A DNA stretch of 64,000 bases from an uncultured Chthonomonadaceae bacterium (GTDB lineage: Bacteria; Armatimonadota; Chthonomonadetes; Chthonomonadales; Chthonomonadaceae): NCBI GenBank assembly GCA_963817895.1, contig CAWFQB010000006.1, positions 1 to 64,000 of the forward strand. Reading direction: 5' to 3'. The notes beneath the pieces were generated by a model. It made no database searches. It had not been told where the DNA came from and worked only from the letters and a program-made list of their open reading frames with translations. The translations under genes were made by a program, and so were the position numbers. Positions 774 through 54,979 of the stretch are shown here, in pieces; positions within the stretch are counted from its first letter, which is position 1; the number at the start of each line of letters is the position of its first letter.

Positions 774-1133
774 CTATCGGGGCGTCAGCAAAAAGATTTG
801 GCTTGTCTCTTTGTATGTGCCGAAGCCCACGATTTGACCTTTGCTGTTGATGCTCGCCGCGAAGGATAAGTCCCATCCTGTTTTGGCGGCGATCAGCGTG
901 TTCAAGTCCGTCATCACGCCATTCTGCCACAGAAAAGCGTGAGTGATATAACTGCGCCTTGTGCCGGGAGGATCGGCTTTGGTAATCGCGTAAGCGTCTT
1001 TGTGGGGCAAATCCGGTAGAACCGGCATTATGGGTGAGGGCGTACCGCCGCCTCCTCCGCACCCGGACAGCGCCAGCAGGCAAAGAGTCGTCAGCACAAA
1101 AGTGTTACTCAATCTGGCCTGTAAATGGAACAT
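774..1133 (-). CDS. short lipoprotein with one HAF-type extracellular repeat, probably internally truncated
   Basis: lipobox LSGC; HAFLWQNGVMTDL and ASINSKGQIVGFG...FLLTP match the C-terminal end of HAF-repeat proteins. Confidence 0.6.
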   Translation of the reverse strand: MFHLQARLSNTFVLTTLCLLALSGCGGGGGTPSPIMPVLPDLPHKDAYAITKADPPGTRRSYITHAFLWQNGVMTDLNTLIAAKTGWDLSFAASINSKGQIVGFGTYKETSQIFLLTPR

Positions 1134-1222
1134 GGTTCATCCTCTGAAAAGATGCGGTTGCAGCAAAAGATTTCGATAAACGGCAGCGCAGGCAATGTCC
1201 CTGCGCGTCGGGGTACGAGGAA

Positions 1223-34812: not shown

Positions 34813-35616
34813 ATGACATGGACGAATTAGAACTATTGCGGCAACGCGTTCAACAACTGGAAAAAGAACTGGCCGAAGCGCGTCAAGTTCAGTCAATGGA
34901 TCGAATTTCGCCAATTGAATTGTATAAAATGCGCGCGTTTCTTACGCCATTGAAAGGATTTGTTCGCACTCTGCTCGACGACGAAAAAGAGGAGTGGTAT
35001 ACCCGCGAAGACCGCCGTGAGTTTTATACCATTTTGGAAGAAAACATTGATCGGCTGTCTGATCTTAATAGGGTTTGGCAGGGTGGAAAGAAAGAAGCAC
35101 TGCCCTCTGGTCTTGATATGTACTGGCAAGCCGATGTAGATGTACGCAAAATCGTGGAAAGCGTTGTTGCCGTACATCAAAGACAAACTAATAAGCATAC
35201 GCTGGTAGTTGATTTTGAGCCTCAGCAAATTTTGGTTGAAGCCGATGCGGGAAAACTTGAGATTCTTCTGGATACTCTGGATTGCCAATGCAATCAAATA
35301 TTCACCGGACGGGGGAGAAGTTCGGATTCGCGCTCGTCTGGAACCGCCGAATACCGAATGGGCGTGTGGAACGCTTCTGCTGCAAGTGAAGGATCAAGGG
35401 CTTGGGTTGAGTAAATCCGAGTTGAAACCAGTAGGTCATATATTTATCACTCCAAAACAGGGACAGCGCAACCCGGATGCTTCCAAGGGGCTGTGGCAGA
35501 CCAAAGGCATCATCAAGGCGCATCATGGCAAATTCCGGCTTGAAAGTGAGGGACATGGGAAAGGCTTAACCTTCAACGTCCGTATGCCCATGAAGCAGCC
35601 AGAGGCAGAAGATTAG
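34809..35616 (+). CDS. sensor-less histidine kinase-like protein, degenerate H-box; +1 indel near 35280
   Basis: LTPLKGFVRTLL..RREFYTIL HisKA-like region; N-box IANAIKYSPDGG, VKDQGLG, HHGKFRLESEGHGKG. Confidence 0.65.
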
Positions 35617-35711
35617 AACCTGAATGATGGAATACAGGAGAAGTCTATGACATTGACTATTGAACTTATGCTGGAACAGGAAGCGCAACTTACAAGATGG
35701 ACAGGTGAAAA

Positions 35712-36272
35712 TTATATCTCTGCTTGATGAGGCTGAAGCAGGCTGACTGTCTTGTAAAGTCCACACTGGACCAGAGTTGCAAGGTACTCTTCAACGGTTT
35801 TGGGTGGGTTTACCAATGCCTCACGATGGCGCTTGACTAATTGTACAAATTGCAGCGGGTCGGCTTTATACAGACCTGCCGCAAAATCGTCCGGGTGAAC
35901 GGCCTGCACATGGTAAGCGGCAAGAATCTTCGCGGGAAAGTCCGACAGGTTGAAAGTGACGATCACGGGAGCCTGCGCGGTGATGGCAGCGGCGAGTACA
36001 TGCCGGTCATTGGCATCAGGAAGCGTCAGGGTAGGAATCAGTGTTTCATAACCCGTCACCAGACACTTCCCGCCATGAAGGTTCATCAGGTCGCGTGTGC
36101 GCGTAAGTTGCGCCAATGTCACATCCGGGCGATCCGCCAGCACGTTACGTATCCATTCCTCATGGATGGTGTCCGTCCATTTTGGCTGATACAGCCTAAC
36201 CGCCAGACGCATAAAGAAGTCTCGCAAGGCAGCCGGATAGAGAACGCAAGCATCTAAAACAGCCGCCTGCAT
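35712..36272 (-). CDS. PIN domain toxin (PIN_3-like)
   Basis: AVLDACVL, LPDANDRHVLAAA, IVTFNLSDFP. Confidence 0.85.
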   Translation of the reverse strand: MQAAVLDACVLYPAALRDFFMRLAVRLYQPKWTDTIHEEWIRNVLADRPDVTLAQLTRTRDLMNLHGGKCLVTGYETLIPTLTLPDANDRHVLAAAITAQAPVIVTFNLSDFPAKILAAYHVQAVHPDDFAAGLYKADPLQFVQLVKRHREALVNPPKTVEEYLATLVQCGLYKTVSLLQPHQAEI

Positions 36273-42633: not shown

Positions 42634-45600
42634 TCAAACTATACTGACCTCATCCTCTGATAAGGCGTAGGCGACAGCCTGCTCCCATGTCAAAGTATAG
42701 CCCTGCTTTAAGGCGGTCGCATACATCTCTTCGCCCAGCGCGCTACAGGCCTGATCTACAAAGTGGACGTATGTTCGGCTCTCATTGGGAGGCAGGGGAA
42801 CGCCAATGCTCTCTTGAAGCGCTACGGCCGCTCCCCAGAGGCGCGCGGCCTTTTTTGGCATAGCGAGCGCCAGCATCACAGCGGCCAGTCCTCTCAGACT
42901 GATGGCGACTCCCGGTCGGTCCACCATTTCCTGGAGGAGAAACAGACTCTCCTCATGCAGCGGCTGAGCAACAATGTAATCGCTTTGCGCGTAAGCCACA
43001 TCGCCCAATCCGCTAAGACAATAAGCGATATAAGATCGATTGCCCAACTTCCGGCTGATACCCAGACTCTCCTCATAGAAGGATTTGGCAGCAGTATGAT
43101 CGCCCTGTGAACTCAGCGCGACACCCAATTTGTAGAGTGAAAAGGCGATACCGTTTTGCTCTCCGAGTTCGCGCCGGATGCCCAGACTCTCCTCAATGAG
43201 TGTCCGCGCCAGAGGATAATCTCCCAGATTAGTCGCTACGTCGCCCAGGTTCGTCAGCGACCAGGCAACCCCATGTATGTATTCCAGCTCTTTGAAGAGC
43301 GCCAGGCTTTCCTCATAGGCGGCCCGCGCGACAGCGTGCTTCCCCTGTTCACCCGCGTTGCTTGCCAGGTTATTGAGGGAGAAAGCGATCCCCCGCTTGT
43401 TGTCGAGACTCCGAAAGATGCGCAGGCTCTCCTGCCCCAGGGTATGCCCTGCTGTGTAATCGCCTTGAGAATCCGCTAATGAGCTGGCTCGTAGCAAGGC
43501 CCATGCCCGCATAGATGTATCTCCCTGAACATTCTCTCGCGCCAATATTCGCTCTAAAAACATCCTGCCTTCGCTGACATCACCGCGTATACTCCAAAAA
43601 TTCCACAGGGCTGTTGCAAGTCGCAATCCGGTTTCTTTGGAGTTCCCTCACAGGGCCGTCCCATTGCAGACTGGCCCGGAGGTTATCGCGCTCTGTTTCG
43701 AACCGCAGCAACGCTGCTTCCTGCTCTCCCCCTTCCAGCTGATTGCGGGCCTCTGCAACCACAGCGATACACCAGTCTCGATGCCTGGCATAAACGGCCT
43801 CCCTTTCACCGCTTGCCTGTAGGAATTCCGCCGCGTACTGTCGCACCATTTCCAATAGATGGTAACGTCCACCTTCTTCTCCCCCCCCGTACCATAAACG
43901 CTATCAGCGACTTATCAATCAAAGAAGTCAGCAGGTCGAGAATCTGCGACGCCTGAACTTCCCCTCCCGCACAAACCTGCTCGACGGCGTCGAGCGTCCA
44001 GCCTCCGGCAAAAACAGATAGGCGGCGCAATAACAGGCGCTCCGATTCGTTCAAAAGAGCATACGACCAATCCAGCGTGGATCGCAGCGTCTGTTGACGC
44101 GACTGCGCCGAGCGGCTGCCACCTGTCAACAAGCCTAATTCATTGTCCAACCGGGCCGCAATCTGTTCCACCGTCAGCGCTTTAACACGCGCGGCGGCCA
44201 GTTCAAGGGCGAGCGGAATCCCTTCCAGGCGAAAGCAGACCTGCGCCACCGACAAGGCATTGCTTCTGGTGAGCGCAAAAGTTTTCTGGACTGATTGCGC
44301 CCGCTCCACAAACAACTGTACGCTTTCATAACCCATCAGCGCCCCAGGCAACGTGGCGTTCGCCTGCGGCAGATGGGCCGGGACGGGCGCGGCCAGCGAA
44401 GGAACGGCCCAGGCTGTTTCACCCGTGATGCCGAGCGCCTCCCGGCTCGTCGCTAAGATATGCGCTCCCGCGCACTCGCGCAAGAGGTACGCTGCTGCCT
44501 CCGCGCTCGCCTCCAGAAGATGCTCACAGTTGTCCAGCACCAACAGCAGCCGCTTCGCGCGCAGAGTTTCCTTCAGGCTTTGCAGTAAACTCCGTCCACT
44601 CTCCTTTAGCCCCAACACGGAGGCGATCTGTTGAGCCACCATCTTGTCCTCTGAGAGCGCCTCCAGCGCCACCAGCCACACGCCATCAGGATACTCGCTT
44701 ACGACCTCTTTCGCGACTTCCATCGCCAGGCGAGTCTTCCCGATGCCTCCCATGCCGGTCAGCGTCACCAGCCTAGACCTTCGCAGGCGTTGCGCCACTT
44801 CCATCCGCTCGTCCTCTCGGCCCACCAGGTCGGTGAGCGCGTGAGGCAGGTAGCCGGTGACACGAGGGACAGACGCCACTTCCGCCTTTACTGACGCAGG
44901 CGTACTGGACTGCTGACGCGCCTCTGTTCGCAAACGCTCATACAGGGCGCGCGTTTTCTCATCGGGAACGGCGGTGGGATCGCTTCTGAGAATAGTCAGA
45001 AATTCGCGGTACACCTGCAAGGCCGCGTTGCGGTCGCCCTGCTTTGCCAGCGCCTCCATCCATCCTCGCCGCGCCGCATCCGACCAGGTATCAAGGCTGG
45101 CGGCGCGCTGAAAGTGACGGAGGGCCGCCGCATAGTCGCCTCCCGCCAAAGCGGACTCTCCAAGTTTTTGCAAAGCCTGCAAGCAACACTGCTCACGGTG
45201 GGCGCGCTCCTGCCCAACCCACTCTTCAGCACAGCCTTCGAGCAGTGGCCCGCCATACAGCGCCACCGCCTGTTCCAGATCGGCAAGGTTCCCACTCTTG
45301 ATGGCGGCATCAAAGCGAAGAATATCCACATCCGCGCCGGAAAGTTCCAGAAGAAGCGTTTGACGGTCCGGCGATTGCAGCCGCGCGCCCTCCTCTCCCA
45401 ACGCCCTGCGCAGTTCGCTCAAGACGGGGCGCAGGTTGGCAAACGCCTGGCTCTGCTCCAGATCGGGCCACAGCGTGGCTGCCAGCCACTCCCGTTCCAC
45501 AGGCCGGTCATGGCGCAGTGTCAGCAAGGCCAGCGCCCACAACGCCTTACGCGAACGAAATGGCGGCAGGGGTAGACCTTGCGCCCTTACCTGCATCGGG

Positions 45601-45647
45601 CCGAACAGAGTTATGGTTAGCGTATCGGCAGTCTCTGGCGAGGACAT
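42634..45647 (-). CDS. AfsR/SARP-like regulator 1 (wHTH-BTAD-NB-ARC-TPR); indels near 43885 and 43650
   Basis: [10 protein letters not shown], Walker [44 protein letters not shown] tail; three ORFs join. Confidence 0.85.
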
Positions 45648-45712
45648 AAACGCAATCCTTCCTGCGCAACCTGGACCTGGCAAACAAACTTACTGGGAAG
45701 CAAATGGCTCTC

Positions 45713-51081: not shown

Positions 51082-51252
51082 ATGGGCAAAATCATCATGG
51101 GACTTTTTCTGGGCTTTCTGATTGGCGTCGGCTGTCGCGGCTTCGACATTCCGCTGCCTGCCCCACCCAAACTGATCGGGGCGTTAGTGGTGCTGTCCAT
51201 GACATTCGGCTATGTCGGCATGGATTACCTGCTATCCTGCCATGCAAAATAG
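51082..51252 (+). CDS. XapX-domain (DUF1427-like) small membrane protein
   Basis: GFLIG..FDIPLPAPPKLIGALVVLSMTFGY. Confidence 0.7.
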   Translation: MGKIIMGLFLGFLIGVGCRGFDIPLPAPPKLIGALVVLSMTFGYVGMDYLLSCHAK

Positions 51253-51331
51253 GCAGCAAGCCTTGGTTGCAATCTGCTTTTGGAGCGGTTTCATTGACGG
51301 AATCGTAAGAATTATGAAGGAGGTGAAAATA

Positions 51332-51502
51332 ATGGAGTGGGTACAATTTATCGGGTTCATAGCAGTCTGGATCGTGCTACAGCGTTTTATCCTGCCCAAA
51401 CTTGGCATCACTACTTGAATGGCTCCAGGTGGCTGCGCGGTGGAACCGCGCGAAAAGAAACGCGCAGACAAAACAGAAACCGACGCCGACCAGATACGAT
51501 GA
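51332..51502 (+). CDS. candidate 56-aa membrane-anchored selenoprotein (TGA at 51416-51418)
   Basis: AAGGAGGTG RBS; MEWVQFIGFIAVWIVLQRFILPKLGITT-U-MAPGGCAVEPREKKRADKTETDADQIR; hairpin GCGCGGT-GGA-ACCGCGC starts 17 nt after TGA. Confidence 0.6.
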
Positions 51503-51508
51503 AAGCAA

Positions 51509-51548
51509 CGTCCAAACGACATTGAACGTATCTCATGTCGTTTGGACG
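51509..51548. terminator. 14-bp hairpin between convergent genes
   Basis: CGTCCAAACGACAT / ATGTCGTTTGGACG, directly after stop 51502. Confidence 0.6.
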
Positions 51549-51549
51549 C

Positions 51550-54500
51550 TCAGCACCCGGATGCAATCATGAGCATGGCTGAATGAGAGTTTTCTTCCGC
51601 ATCGCCGTCAAACCGCTCGGAACCCCTCTCCGACAAAGCGACTGCAACGGCCTCCTCCCAGGTCAGCGCCCGCCCCTCCTCCCAGCCTCGCGCGAACGCT
51701 TCATCTCCCGCGACAGCGCAGGCGGCTGCCACATCGCGCTCGTATTCTTCTCGCGCGCTGGACGGCAGCGGCGCGCCAATCTGTTCCCGCAACGCCTGTG
51801 CCGCTCCCCACAAGCGGGCCGCTCTTTGCATTTCTACGCCCGCCTCGTTGCTCCCCCCTGCCGTTTCCACCGAAGTTGTAGACGCAAGCGTTTCTACCGC
51901 GATAAGAGCGGCGAAGGCATCCAGAAACGAGAGAATGCCAGGCCGACATTCGATGCTCCGCCAGATTGCGAGGCTCTCTTCGTGGCAAGCGCGGGCGGCA
52001 ACATAGTCAGCCCGTATGCGTTCCCGACACCCCAGATTATGGAGTGAGGCGGCGACAGCAAGGGGTTTTCCGATCACTCGTCGGAGCGCCAGGCTCTCCG
52101 CATGGTAAGCTCGACCGGCAGCATCGTCGCCCCGTTTATAGGCTTCATCCCCCAGTTCATACAGGGTGGCAGCAATACCCGGCCGATCTCCGATCTCTCG
52201 TCGAATCGCCAGGCTCTCATCCAGGTAGACCTGCGGGGCAGCATAGTCGCTCCGGTTCCAGGGCACCCTCCCCAGGTTCGTGAGACTACTGGCTATACCC
52301 GGCAGATCTCCGAGTTCCCGAGAGATTGTCAGGCTCTCATTATAGTAGGCCCGCGCAGCAACAGTGTCGTCCTGATCGCTGGTAACATTTCCCATAGAAT
52401 TGAGGACGGTAGCAATACCCAGCCTATCTCCGAGTTCCCGAGAGATTGTCAGGCTCTCAGCAAAGTAGGCCCACGCAGCAGCATAGTCGCCACGAATATA
52501 TTCCTCTTCCCCCAGGTTATTGAGACAGCTGGCTATACTCTGCCGATCTCCGAGTTCCCGAAAAATTGTCAGGCTCTCATTATAGTAGGCGCGCGCGGCA
52601 ACAGTGTCGCCCTGATCGCTGGTAACATTTGCCAGGCAGTTGAGTGACGCCGCGATACCCATCCGGTTTCCGAGTTCCCGCAGGATTTCCCAGGCACTCT
52701 TCAAGGTAGGCGCGCCCAACCGCATAGTCACCCAGAATGCAGGCCAGCATCCCGGCCCCAATGAGTCCTCTCGTTCGCGCCGCCGTTCGCTCCTGCGCTC
52801 CTTTGGCCTGCAATGCTTTCTCGCACCATGCCCGTCCCTCCGTTAGATACCCGCGCGTATGCCAGAACTCCAGCAACGCGCCGCAGATAAGCAAGGGGAT
52901 GGTGGAATACGGCTGAAATTCATCCTGGTTCCCTCGTCCCTCTTTCTCCTCTTTCAGGCTCCAGTCAAGAGCGGCCCGCAAATTCCCATGCTCACTGTCC
53001 AAACGCGTCAACCACGCCTCCTGCTCCGCCGTTATCAGCGCCTTCTCGGCCTGCTCGGCAAATGTCAAACACCACGCCAGATGCCGGAGTTTTACCTGCT
53101 TTGCCTCCTCTCTCGCTTGCAATTCCTGCGCGGCGTATTGTCGCACCATCTCCAGTAAACGGTAACGCCCATCTGCGTGGCCCCGTTCCTCGAATAAGAC
53201 CAGGGACTTGTCCACCAGAGAGGTCAACAGGTTCTGCATCTGCTTCTCCTCAACACCATCCCCGGCACACACCTGCTCTGCCGCTTCCAGAGTGCAGCCA
53301 CCGGCAAAGACAGACAGCCGCCTCAGCGTTGCCCGCTCCGCTTCACTCAACAGGGCGTAAGACCAGTCCAGCGTAGCCCGCAGCGTTTGCTGACGGCCGG
53401 GAGCTGTGCGGCTCCCGGCCGTCAGCAAACCCAGGTTGTCGTGCAGGCGCGAGGCGATCTGCTCGACGGTCATGGCTCTCGCCCGTGCCGCCGCCAGTTC
53501 AATAGCAAGAGGAATACCCTCCAATTGTTGGCACACCTGCGCTACCATCCGCGCATTGCTGCCCGACAGGGTAAAACTTTTTTGTACCGCCTGTGCGCGC
53601 TCTACGAACAACTGCACACTTTCATAACTCATCAGCACGCGAAGCAGGGTGGTGTTCGCCTGTGGCAGATGGGCTGGATCGGGCACAGCCAGAGCAGGAA
53701 CGGACCAGGCTGTCTCGCCCGTGATCCCCAATGCCTCTCGGCTAGTGGCTAAAATTTTTACCGTCGCGCATTCCCGCAAAAGATGGGCTACAACCTGAGC
53801 GCTCGCTTCCAGCAGATGTTCACAATTGTCCAGTACCAACAGGAGCCGCTTCGGACGCAGATGCTCGGTCACACGCTGCAAAGGAGTTCGGTCCGGCTCT
53901 TCTCTAAGCCCCAACACGGAGGCGACCTGTTGGATCACGAGTCTGCCATCGGAGAGCGTGTCCAGCGCCACCAGCCACGCGCCATCGGCATATTCTCGAA
54001 CGACCTCGCTGGCAACCTCGCGCGCCAACCTGGTTTTGCCGATGCCGCCTGCTCCCGTTAGCGTCACCAGGCGAGAACGTCCCAGCCTCACTGCTATCTC
54101 CTGCCGCTCGTCCTCTCTTCCTACCAGGTCCGTCAAGGGATAGGGAAGATAGCCTAAGACCTTCGGAACCTCTAACACGTCCGCCAAAACAACCGCATGG
54201 GAATGTTTTTGTGTCTGCGCTTCGGCTCTCAAACGCTCATACAGGGCGCGTGTCTGTTCATCGGGAACGGCGGCAGGATCGCTCCTCAGAACCGTGAGGA
54301 ATTCGCGGTACACCTGCAAGGCCGCATTACGGTCGCCCTGCTTCGCCAGCGCTTCCATCCACCCGCGCCGCGCCGCATCCGACCAGGCATCCAGACCGGC
54401 GGCTTTCTGGAAATAAGTGACAGCCTCCGCATAGGTTCCTGCCCTCAGCGCGGCTTCTCCTAACTTCTGCAACGCCTGCAAGCACTGCTGTTCCCGGCTG

Positions 54501-54979
54501 GCGCGTTCCTGCGTCACCCATTCTTCCTGACAGCCTTCCAGCAGCGGCCCGCCATACAGCGTCACCGCCTGTTGCAGATGGGCAAGGTTCCCGCTCTGGC
54601 TGTCCCTCTTAATGGCGGCATCAAACGCGAGGACATCTACTTGCGCGCCGGAAAGTTCCAGCAGAAGCGTTTGACGATCCGGCGATTGCAGCCGCGCCCC
54701 TTCCTCTCCCAATGCTCTGCGCAACTCGCTGAGAACGGGGCGCAGGTTGGCAAACGCCTGGCTCTGCTCCAGTTCCGGCCACAGCGTTGCGGCCAGCCAC
54801 TCGCGTTCCACGGGGCGAGAATGGCGCAGGGTCAGCAGCGCCAGCGCCCACAGCGCCTTACGGGAACGAAAAGGCGGAAGGAGGTTGCCCCCCACCCGCG
54901 CCTGCATCGGCCCGAACAGAGTAATGGTTAACGCTTGAACAGCGGTTTGCGCTTCCGCGCCGATCTCTGACGAGGGCAT
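51550..54979 (-). CDS. AfsR/SARP-like regulator 2 (wHTH-BTAD-NB-ARC-TPR); +1 indel near 52690
   Basis: close paralogue of 42634..45647; [17 protein letters not shown], 40-aa TPR repeats. Confidence 0.87.

Follow-up and report, generated by a model that had tools for sequence, protein, structure and literature searches.

SELENOK and SELENOS are single-pass membrane selenoproteins with a disordered cytosolic tail, in which Sec is located C-terminally, far from the membrane, and the SECIS element lies in the 3′-UTR. SELENOS functions as a thioredoxin-system-dependent Sec/Cys reductase. Most of the catalogued bacterial selenoproteins are soluble proteins of the thioredoxin fold or metalloenzymes, with the redox pair arranged as U-x2-C or C-x2-U. 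In bacterial SelB/bSECIS genes the in-frame UGA is accompanied by a hairpin, for which a figure legend gives the consensus: G in the first two loop positions, a loop 16–37 nt after the UGA and an energy of −7.5 kcal/mol or lower (PMC13188914, Fig. 2). Small membrane proteins with the YgaP-like transmembrane domain (PF11127, former DUF2892) have two helices, a conserved R and a C-P motif; one subclass ends in I-L-x-K-L-G-V-P and another in G-I-x-T-C. The family of the protein described here was listed earlier as a selenoprotein family in deep-Sep Data S1 (2025) under a placeholder name, with name and sequences only.

The gene lies in a 64,000-nt stretch of DNA from an uncultured Chthonomonadaceae bacterium (the window; contig CAWFQB010000006.1, positions 1–64,000). 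By every computational test available it reads as a real selenoprotein gene, a member of this predicted but hardly noticed family, and its product is most likely a membrane-anchored selenoprotein of 56 residues that gene finders have shortened. A Shine–Dalgarno sequence (AAGGAGGTGA, 51317..51326, plus strand) stands 5 nt 5′ of the ATG at 51332. The coding sequence (51332..51502, +) would be read through an in-frame UGA at codon 29 (51416..51418, predicted Sec29) up to a second TGA at 51500–51502. A single transmembrane helix is predicted for residues 2–24 (51335..51403, +), with P22 and G25 invariant in the family and a predicted N-out/C-in orientation. The codon of the putative partner thiol, Cys35, occupies 51434..51436 (+), and the remaining tail (51437..51499, +) is charged, weakly conserved and, judging from the alignment and AlphaFold2, probably disordered; in the AlphaFold2 model of the window protein the helix at residues 2–24 is followed by a low-confidence tail. 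A bSECIS-type hairpin (51434..51452, +) has a perfect 7-bp stem at 51435–51451, or 8 bp with a U-G pair, and a GGA loop, whose first G at 51442 is the 24th nucleotide after the UGA. All the sequence features on which the earlier note had based its selenoprotein candidate (ribosome-binding site, one helix, TGA, U-x5-C, second stop and hairpin) are present where it placed them. The protein collection stores the gene, described there as missed by ORF callers, solely as a 34-aa form ending at the UGA (P0002).

The window gene shares with bacterial SelB/bSECIS genes the in-frame UGA, a three-nucleotide loop beginning with G, a stem of 7–8 bp, a spacing of 23 nt and an energy below −7.5 kcal/mol; selA, selB, selD and tRNA-Sec also occur in its genome. 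In contrast to most catalogued bacterial selenoproteins, the family has no folded domain, and its pair is spaced by four or five residues. The likeness to SELENOK and SELENOS (a single membrane pass and a disordered cytosolic tail) is an analogy with no homology claimed, and Sec of the window protein is located mid-chain. With the deep-Sep Data S1 family the window protein shares, as compared by eye, a short N-terminus, a W-bearing hydrophobic helix, the L-P-[KR]-x-G-x-x-T-U motif, a downstream Cys and a charged tail; the listed family has x4 before this Cys, whereas the window protein is U-x5-C. One of the six printed entries has an 11-residue run around Sec in common with the window protein. 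Two Geobacteraceae loci (L014, L015) belong to our family alignment, and the gene is also present in Desulfonatronovibrio records.

Other searches returned little. A word-based homologue search found nothing beyond the UGA-terminated form of the protein itself, a PDB sequence search gave no match under an E-value of 0.2, and Foldseek gave no matches for the single-helix model. In the ESM Atlas one unnamed cluster of 123 members was matched (score 0.87). A plasmid search gave no match.

The link of the gene to the hydrolase/SARP cluster beside it in the window looks incidental. An upstream XapX-domain gene (51082..51252, +; TIGR03510 over cut-off), absent beside the fetched relatives, closes a run of hydrolase, SDR and MBL-fold genes, and the 79-bp gap between it and the selenoprotein gene contains two weak terminator-like sites, about chance level. 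The gene had earlier been taken for the end of a SARP-1 operon; co-transcription with the upstream hydrolase cluster is unsupported, and the SARP/hydrolase setting was seen in no fetched relative. A functional tie to this cluster was rejected for the latter reason. Past the true stop, a strong inverted repeat (51509..51548, −23.5 kcal/mol, z −4.4) lies between convergent genes. The suggestion that a terminator-like hairpin follows the second stop and not the first was thus correct as to the position of a repeat beyond 51502, but the repeat has no U-tract on the plus strand and was left uncalled by a terminator scan. A further Sec candidate claimed for the window was not recovered: the hairpin scan gave no second match tied to a gene.

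The family is broad. A scan of genome contigs yielded 17 relatives, all 17 with TGA at the Sec column; the best match is a Chthonomonadaceae record (61%), in line with an Armatimonadota host. A 42-row profile matched 37 of the 251 genomes sampled from the same phylum, with one copy each, and among the 30 loci fetched there, that of the window included, 29 have TGA and one TGT. In a sample around a Desulfobacteraceae-labelled centre 91/201 genomes match (weak matches counted), with TGA in 30/30 fetched loci. A sample around a Thermodesulfovibrionales-labelled centre has matches in 9 of 101 genomes (loci unfetched), and one around an Ignavibacteriaceae-labelled centre in 67 of 151, with TGA in all 12 fetched loci; the latter is called here the G255 phylum, and a near-identical locus is labelled Zixibacteria. 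Metagenomes contain 18 loci with TGC or TGT at the column, which show that Cys forms exist and not how frequent they are, because the search pattern demanded Cys. Among 28 library homologues, known at the protein level, the residue at this column is C in 22, W in three and R in three.

Conservation extends beyond the UGA. A second Cys follows after four residues in 52/75 members and after five in 16/75; together these 68 of 75 compare with 76 of 1746 ordinary TGA stops. In the other seven members it stands 7–13 residues away. The W-x2-L...L-P-x2-G residues of the helix are invariant or nearly so. The homologues that the earlier note proposed to look for, with a conserved TGA, a downstream Cys and Cys in place of Sec, were therefore found, the last in the 18 metagenome loci and in one own-phylum genome with TGT. 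A homologue with TAA or TAG, which was named there as contrary evidence, occurs once: a weakly matching member in G368 (L157:1258-1440) has TAA at the Sec column, against near-exclusive TGA elsewhere. This copy keeps the hairpin and the downstream Cys and is likely a pseudogene or a sequence error; recoding of UAA was rejected because the tRNA-Sec of this genome has the anticodon UCA. A change of the genetic code was also rejected, because the terminal stops of the family genes (n = 75) are mixed, with TAA in 29, TGA in 28 and TAG in 18.

The distribution of Sec machinery fits that of the UGA. In the own-phylum sample selA occurs in 133/251 genomes, yet in 35 of the 36 TGA carriers (Fisher p 5e-10, which is overstated, as 13 carriers share a family), and the 36th carrier, which has no selA, possesses selB and tRNA-Sec. 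The TGT carrier (G094, 88% complete) yielded no match for selA, and neither its selB nor its tRNA-Sec search exceeded the cut-off. Its gene (L044:1304-1453, minus strand) still has a strong hairpin at the SECIS position, a possible relic of a recent Sec-to-Cys change. The second sample covered by the selA test, the G255 phylum, is non-discriminating, since selA is near-universal there (147/151 genomes, 66/67 carriers). The restriction to genomes with Sec machinery, proposed as a check, is thus observed in the own phylum, and together with the conserved TGA and Cys and the Cys orthologues it strongly supports the selenoprotein reading.

The hairpin of the window gene, folded alone, has an energy of −12.9 kcal/mol (z −3.2), and in a strict bSECIS-type test built on the constraints of the published figure legend (PMC13188914) it passes with an energy of −12.1 and 23 nt between the UGA and the loop. 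Among the 74 distinct TGA members 42 pass it, compared with 50 of 1200 ordinary TGA stops of the window genome, 2.7% of synonymous randomisations and 2 of 13 Cys forms. The other 32 of the 74 members miss the strict energy cut; a loose version, for which there is no background figure, is passed by 70 of 74. The stem also covaries: in an unselected 43-row alignment it is 69% paired and shows 37 double changes, where shuffles give 58% and 16. Relatedness and the origin of the structure inflate these figures. In this alignment each of the six slid registers of the stem scores below the true one.

These data also bear on an alternative in which translation simply ends at the UGA, leaving a membrane peptide of 28 residues, and the next ATG may open a second mini-ORF. 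Gene callers do end the gene at this codon, ATG directly follows the TGA in 55/75 members, and the one TAA member could be read in the same way. However, TGA is near-exclusive at the column while the terminal stops are mixed, the Cys aligned at the column is also followed by Met, and the SECIS enrichment, the covariation and the co-occurrence with selA speak against it as well. We regard a plain stop as extremely improbable, and insertion of Sec at UGA29 by SelB, acting on the in-frame hairpin, as almost certain from the comparative evidence.

Folding in a longer context is less simple. The probability of the stem pairs is about 1.0 for nucleotides +13 to +48, falls to 0.3–0.75 when the sequence extends to +60 and to about 0.1 at +80, as an alternative fold competes with the SECIS of the window gene once about 60–80 downstream bases are included; in the minimum-energy fold of the UGA plus 52 nt the hairpin is absent. 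For the SECIS of this gene to work, the hairpin would then have to fold locally, immediately in front of the ribosome. Such a competing fold, together with the shortness of the ORF, the in-frame SECIS and a tight coupling to the downstream gene in some operons, could also suit a selenium-sensing leader, a peptide of little importance in itself whose UGA would govern translation of the following gene through stalling or read-through. This is improbable. As in the window, the selenoprotein gene is often the last one, with a terminator or a convergent gene after it. Cys orthologues persist, one of them in a genome that yielded no Sec machinery; both the helix residues and the second Cys are conserved, and fusion to thioredoxin occurs.

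The Sec machinery of the window genome (81% complete), the presence of which was a further check suggested for this candidate, includes selA, selD and tRNA-Sec; selB is present too, but frameshifted and spread over several frames (C14:204962-206852). The breaks in selB and the competing fold might mean that the family consists of selenoproteins whose decoding was lost in this organism, through a broken selB or a misfolded hairpin. We give this a low probability, comparable to that of the leader peptide. The selA match is free of stops, the in-frame UGA of selD is retained with a hairpin after it, and tRNA-Sec is present. Moreover, 18 of 20 housekeeping queries were matched in this genome and five of these 18 also change frame, so the breaks in selB are likelier an assembly error than a real lesion, and a broken gene in this assembly should not be taken as a sign of a pseudogene. 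The two SARP/NB-ARC/TPR-type genes of the window (42634–45683 and 51550–54979) are split across frames as well.

Two other tRNA features were observed in the window genome. At C4:227906-230044, 16 tRNA genes are arranged on one strand within about 2.1 kb; dense tRNA arrays of this kind are seen in mobile elements. At C11:90528-90599 ARAGORN called a tRNA with a CUA anticodon (‘tRNA-Pyl’), which may represent a suppressor or a pyrrolysine tRNA, unless the call is false.

The orientation of the protein can be predicted from its charge. By the positive-inside rule the flank richer in K and R faces the cytoplasm, and this is the C side of the helix in 84 of 87 members. The Sec/Cys pair would therefore be cytoplasmic and near the membrane. 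The N-out/C-in topology, which we consider quite probable, would set the U-x4/5-C pair about five residues from the inner membrane face.

The end of the family helix resembles the ends of the two PF11127 subclasses mentioned above, the proteins of which share operons with the family. Profile alignment of the family with YgaP-like proteins by hhalign gave weak matches of 46% and 9%, against 97% for a within-family control, and the local score with the YgaP-type C-terminal segment is 22.0, compared with a maximum of 20.9 in 40 column shuffles. The resemblance is suggestive and not significant. Membership in PF11127 was rejected, since the window family has one helix and is without the C-P motif, and no member matches the PF11127 model. 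One YgaP-like ORF in another genome (G420; L151:1078-1300, C14 ~35580–35800; PF11127 over cut-off) contains two in-frame TGAs that would give U-x-U at the C-P motif. This genome has selB and tRNA-Sec; the hairpin is weak (−6.4 to −7.5), and the ORF, seen once, is a possible unlisted double-Sec variant. A second, diverged single-helix microprotein with C-x-x-U was found at L159 ~1040–1190 (minus strand, G316) and L160 ~1005–1155 (plus strand, G274), where a 6-bp hairpin with a G-first loop follows about 21 nt after the UGA; it is perhaps a sister family.

The first functional handle found for the family is provided by thioredoxin fusions. In a search of longer proteins, the Cys form (C-x4-C) was found fused to a complete WCGPC thioredoxin in three sequences (P0037, P0038 and P0041), which are single-member clusters known at the protein level. 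They represent two types, P0037 and P0038 being 50% identical. Two other long matches are without a Pfam domain and seem to be ORFs extended too far. A single-sequence model of P0038 left the Cys linker unresolved, and the N-terminal part of the thioredoxin fusion led to no named cluster in the ESM Atlas. Thioredoxin genes also occur within about 1.5 kb of the selenoprotein gene. In the G255 phylum this holds for 12/12 of the fetched loci, which amount to one conserved locus; the other figures are 4/15 for Cys loci and 2/59 for loci of the other two samples. The gene sits 3′ of thioredoxin in all 12 loci of the G255 phylum and in single loci of two other phyla.

Further partners are connected with sulfur and with membrane transport. 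Among the carrier genomes with DUF302, 7 of 33 have it directly beside the gene (5/13 and 2/20; 117 carriers searched, including 80 of the 91 Desulfobacterota carriers, the 11 omitted being mostly weaker matches). YgaP-like genes lie within 4 kb in 7/41 cases from 60 hand-picked genomes. Where the gene belongs to a larger operon, this is often one of the persulfide-handling kind. The operons take the order MFP, RND, DUF302, the gene and CoA-disulfide reductase/rhodanese in L109, and ECF, anti-sigma, thioredoxin, CoA-binding, YgaP, SQR-like, the gene and DUF302 in L112. ArsR, the gene, DUF302 and YgaP succeed one another, in part, in L110, L111, L113 and L114, and the gene follows MBL-rhodanese and reductase genes in L155; TauE-like genes are also among the companions. 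SQR, PDO, CoA-persulfide reductase, sulfurtransferases and TauE appear among RSS-regulated genes in PMC13467558, and DUF302 in a module with sulfur dioxygenase, rhodanese and TauE in PMC6305408.

At least one of the partner families is found within about 1.6 kb in 55/101 loci, compared with 37/2329 tiles of the window genome; this enrichment is inflated, as the neighbours themselves served to build the profiles, related loci are not independent and the background is a single genome. No partner family lies near the other 46 of 101 loci, and among the 55 positive ones 22 have an FmdB zinc ribbon alone. The window's own locus belongs to those with no partner family within 1.6 kb, and DUF302 was not found in the window genome. 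The FmdB zinc ribbon (TIGR02605), itself a family with a listed Sec form, lies near the gene in 22/101 loci (e.g., L038:1190-1381) and is a very common neighbour in two phyla, which is unexplained by the mechanism proposed below.

The neighbours could also be read in terms of metals. The same selenoprotein might be a chaperone or sensor tethered to the membrane, with a Sec/Cys pair that binds a soft metal or a metalloid (Cu, Hg, As or Zn). Its recurrent neighbours include ArsR/SmtB regulators, RND pumps and FmdB zinc ribbons, and some Cys forms carry C-C-C or C-C-x3-C clusters. Against this, the fusion partner is thioredoxin, the RND pumps fit general RND models with a better score than the CusA/CzcA model and reach neither cut-off, and genes for rhodanese, SQR-like proteins and CoA-disulfide reductase stand in the same operons. 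Metal binding is rather unlikely. Of the two functions that the earlier note had put forward for the peptide, Sec/Cys redox chemistry is thus favoured by the thioredoxin fusions and neighbours, and metal binding is the less favoured.

Another function could be that of a small accessory subunit, comparable with AcrZ, which would dock by its W-x2-L...L-P-x2-G helix on a membrane protein such as an RND pump or a YgaP-type protein and tune it through its own redox state. The helix residues are conserved beyond the needs of an anchor, an RND gene stands upstream, directly or within two genes, in L030, L049, L102/L103 and L107, and in L153 the gene precedes YgaP, TolC, MFP and RND. However, an RND match within 1.6 kb was obtained in only 5/101 loci, and in most cases the selenoprotein gene stands by itself or next to a thioredoxin or FmdB gene, which makes such a subunit unlikely, slightly more so than metal binding.

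A redox role is the preferred reading, and its steps can be formulated with different degrees of confidence. The Sec29/Cys35 pair would alternate between the reduced and the selenenyl-sulfide state, and thioredoxin would reset the oxidised form; a redox centre served by thioredoxin is reasonably likely in view of the fusions. Sulfane sulfur or a persulfide, generated at the membrane by an enzyme such as SQR, could serve as the oxidant. Guessed from the neighbours, this is the best-supported oxidant, and it is put forward tentatively. The neighbouring ArsR proteins, which reach at most 67 bits where the BigR cut-off is 155, count against the mechanism. The protein would then capture sulfane sulfur and hand it to thioredoxin, to CoA-persulfide reductase or to an export module. 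Taken as a whole, a membrane-tethered Sec29/Cys35 redox centre that cycles through a selenenyl sulfide, is re-reduced by thioredoxin and possibly acts on sulfane sulfur is, on balance, the account that we would back. A bolder version is doubtful: a foldless membrane-tethered selenol might be the bacterial functional counterpart of SELENOK and SELENOS, stripping sulfane sulfur at the inner face for thioredoxin, and might be the missing small component of the ArsR–DUF302–YgaP–RND–CoA-persulfide-reductase module.

The databases hold no model of the family. For the window protein NCBIfam r20 and Pfam gave no matches at E-values up to 1, and for 42 members the best E-values were 0.0067 and 0.0011, respectively, with generic membrane helices; the NCBIfam search takes in the NF models cited in the 119-family table of a 2026 review (PMC13188914). 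The family is absent from this table and its placeholder name from the review, as far as the parts of the review covered here go, and BSepDB may still list it. Neither the placeholder name nor the motif is present in deep-Sep Table S1. As for the origin of the G. lovleyi name, the word ‘lovleyi’ does not occur in the main texts of PMC2398784, PMC5029168 and PMC13188914, the supplements of PMC5029168 are without any of three related terms, and the part of the BSepDB supplement covered has a species row only. No analysis of function, topology, neighbourhood or fusions of the family was found in print. The family is therefore predicted before yet uncatalogued, with no printed function found, and the remark that the peptide belongs to no family that could be named is superseded by the listing in deep-Sep Data S1. 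To this the present analysis adds the breadth of the family, Cys orthologues, fusions to thioredoxin and a mechanism that can be tested.

The gene is present in all four phylum samples, yet it is truncated by gene callers and has no HMM. Because it is both truncated and missing from the inventory, selenoproteome counts of sulfate reducers and their relatives are likely one common member short. With 56 residues and both Sec and Cys forms in nature, the peptide is readily synthesised and assayed and would allow a direct test of what is gained from Sec at a membrane surface. Occurring in about 45% of the genomes sampled from Desulfobacterota and from the G255 phylum, the overlooked family would rank with the most frequent selenoproteins of both.
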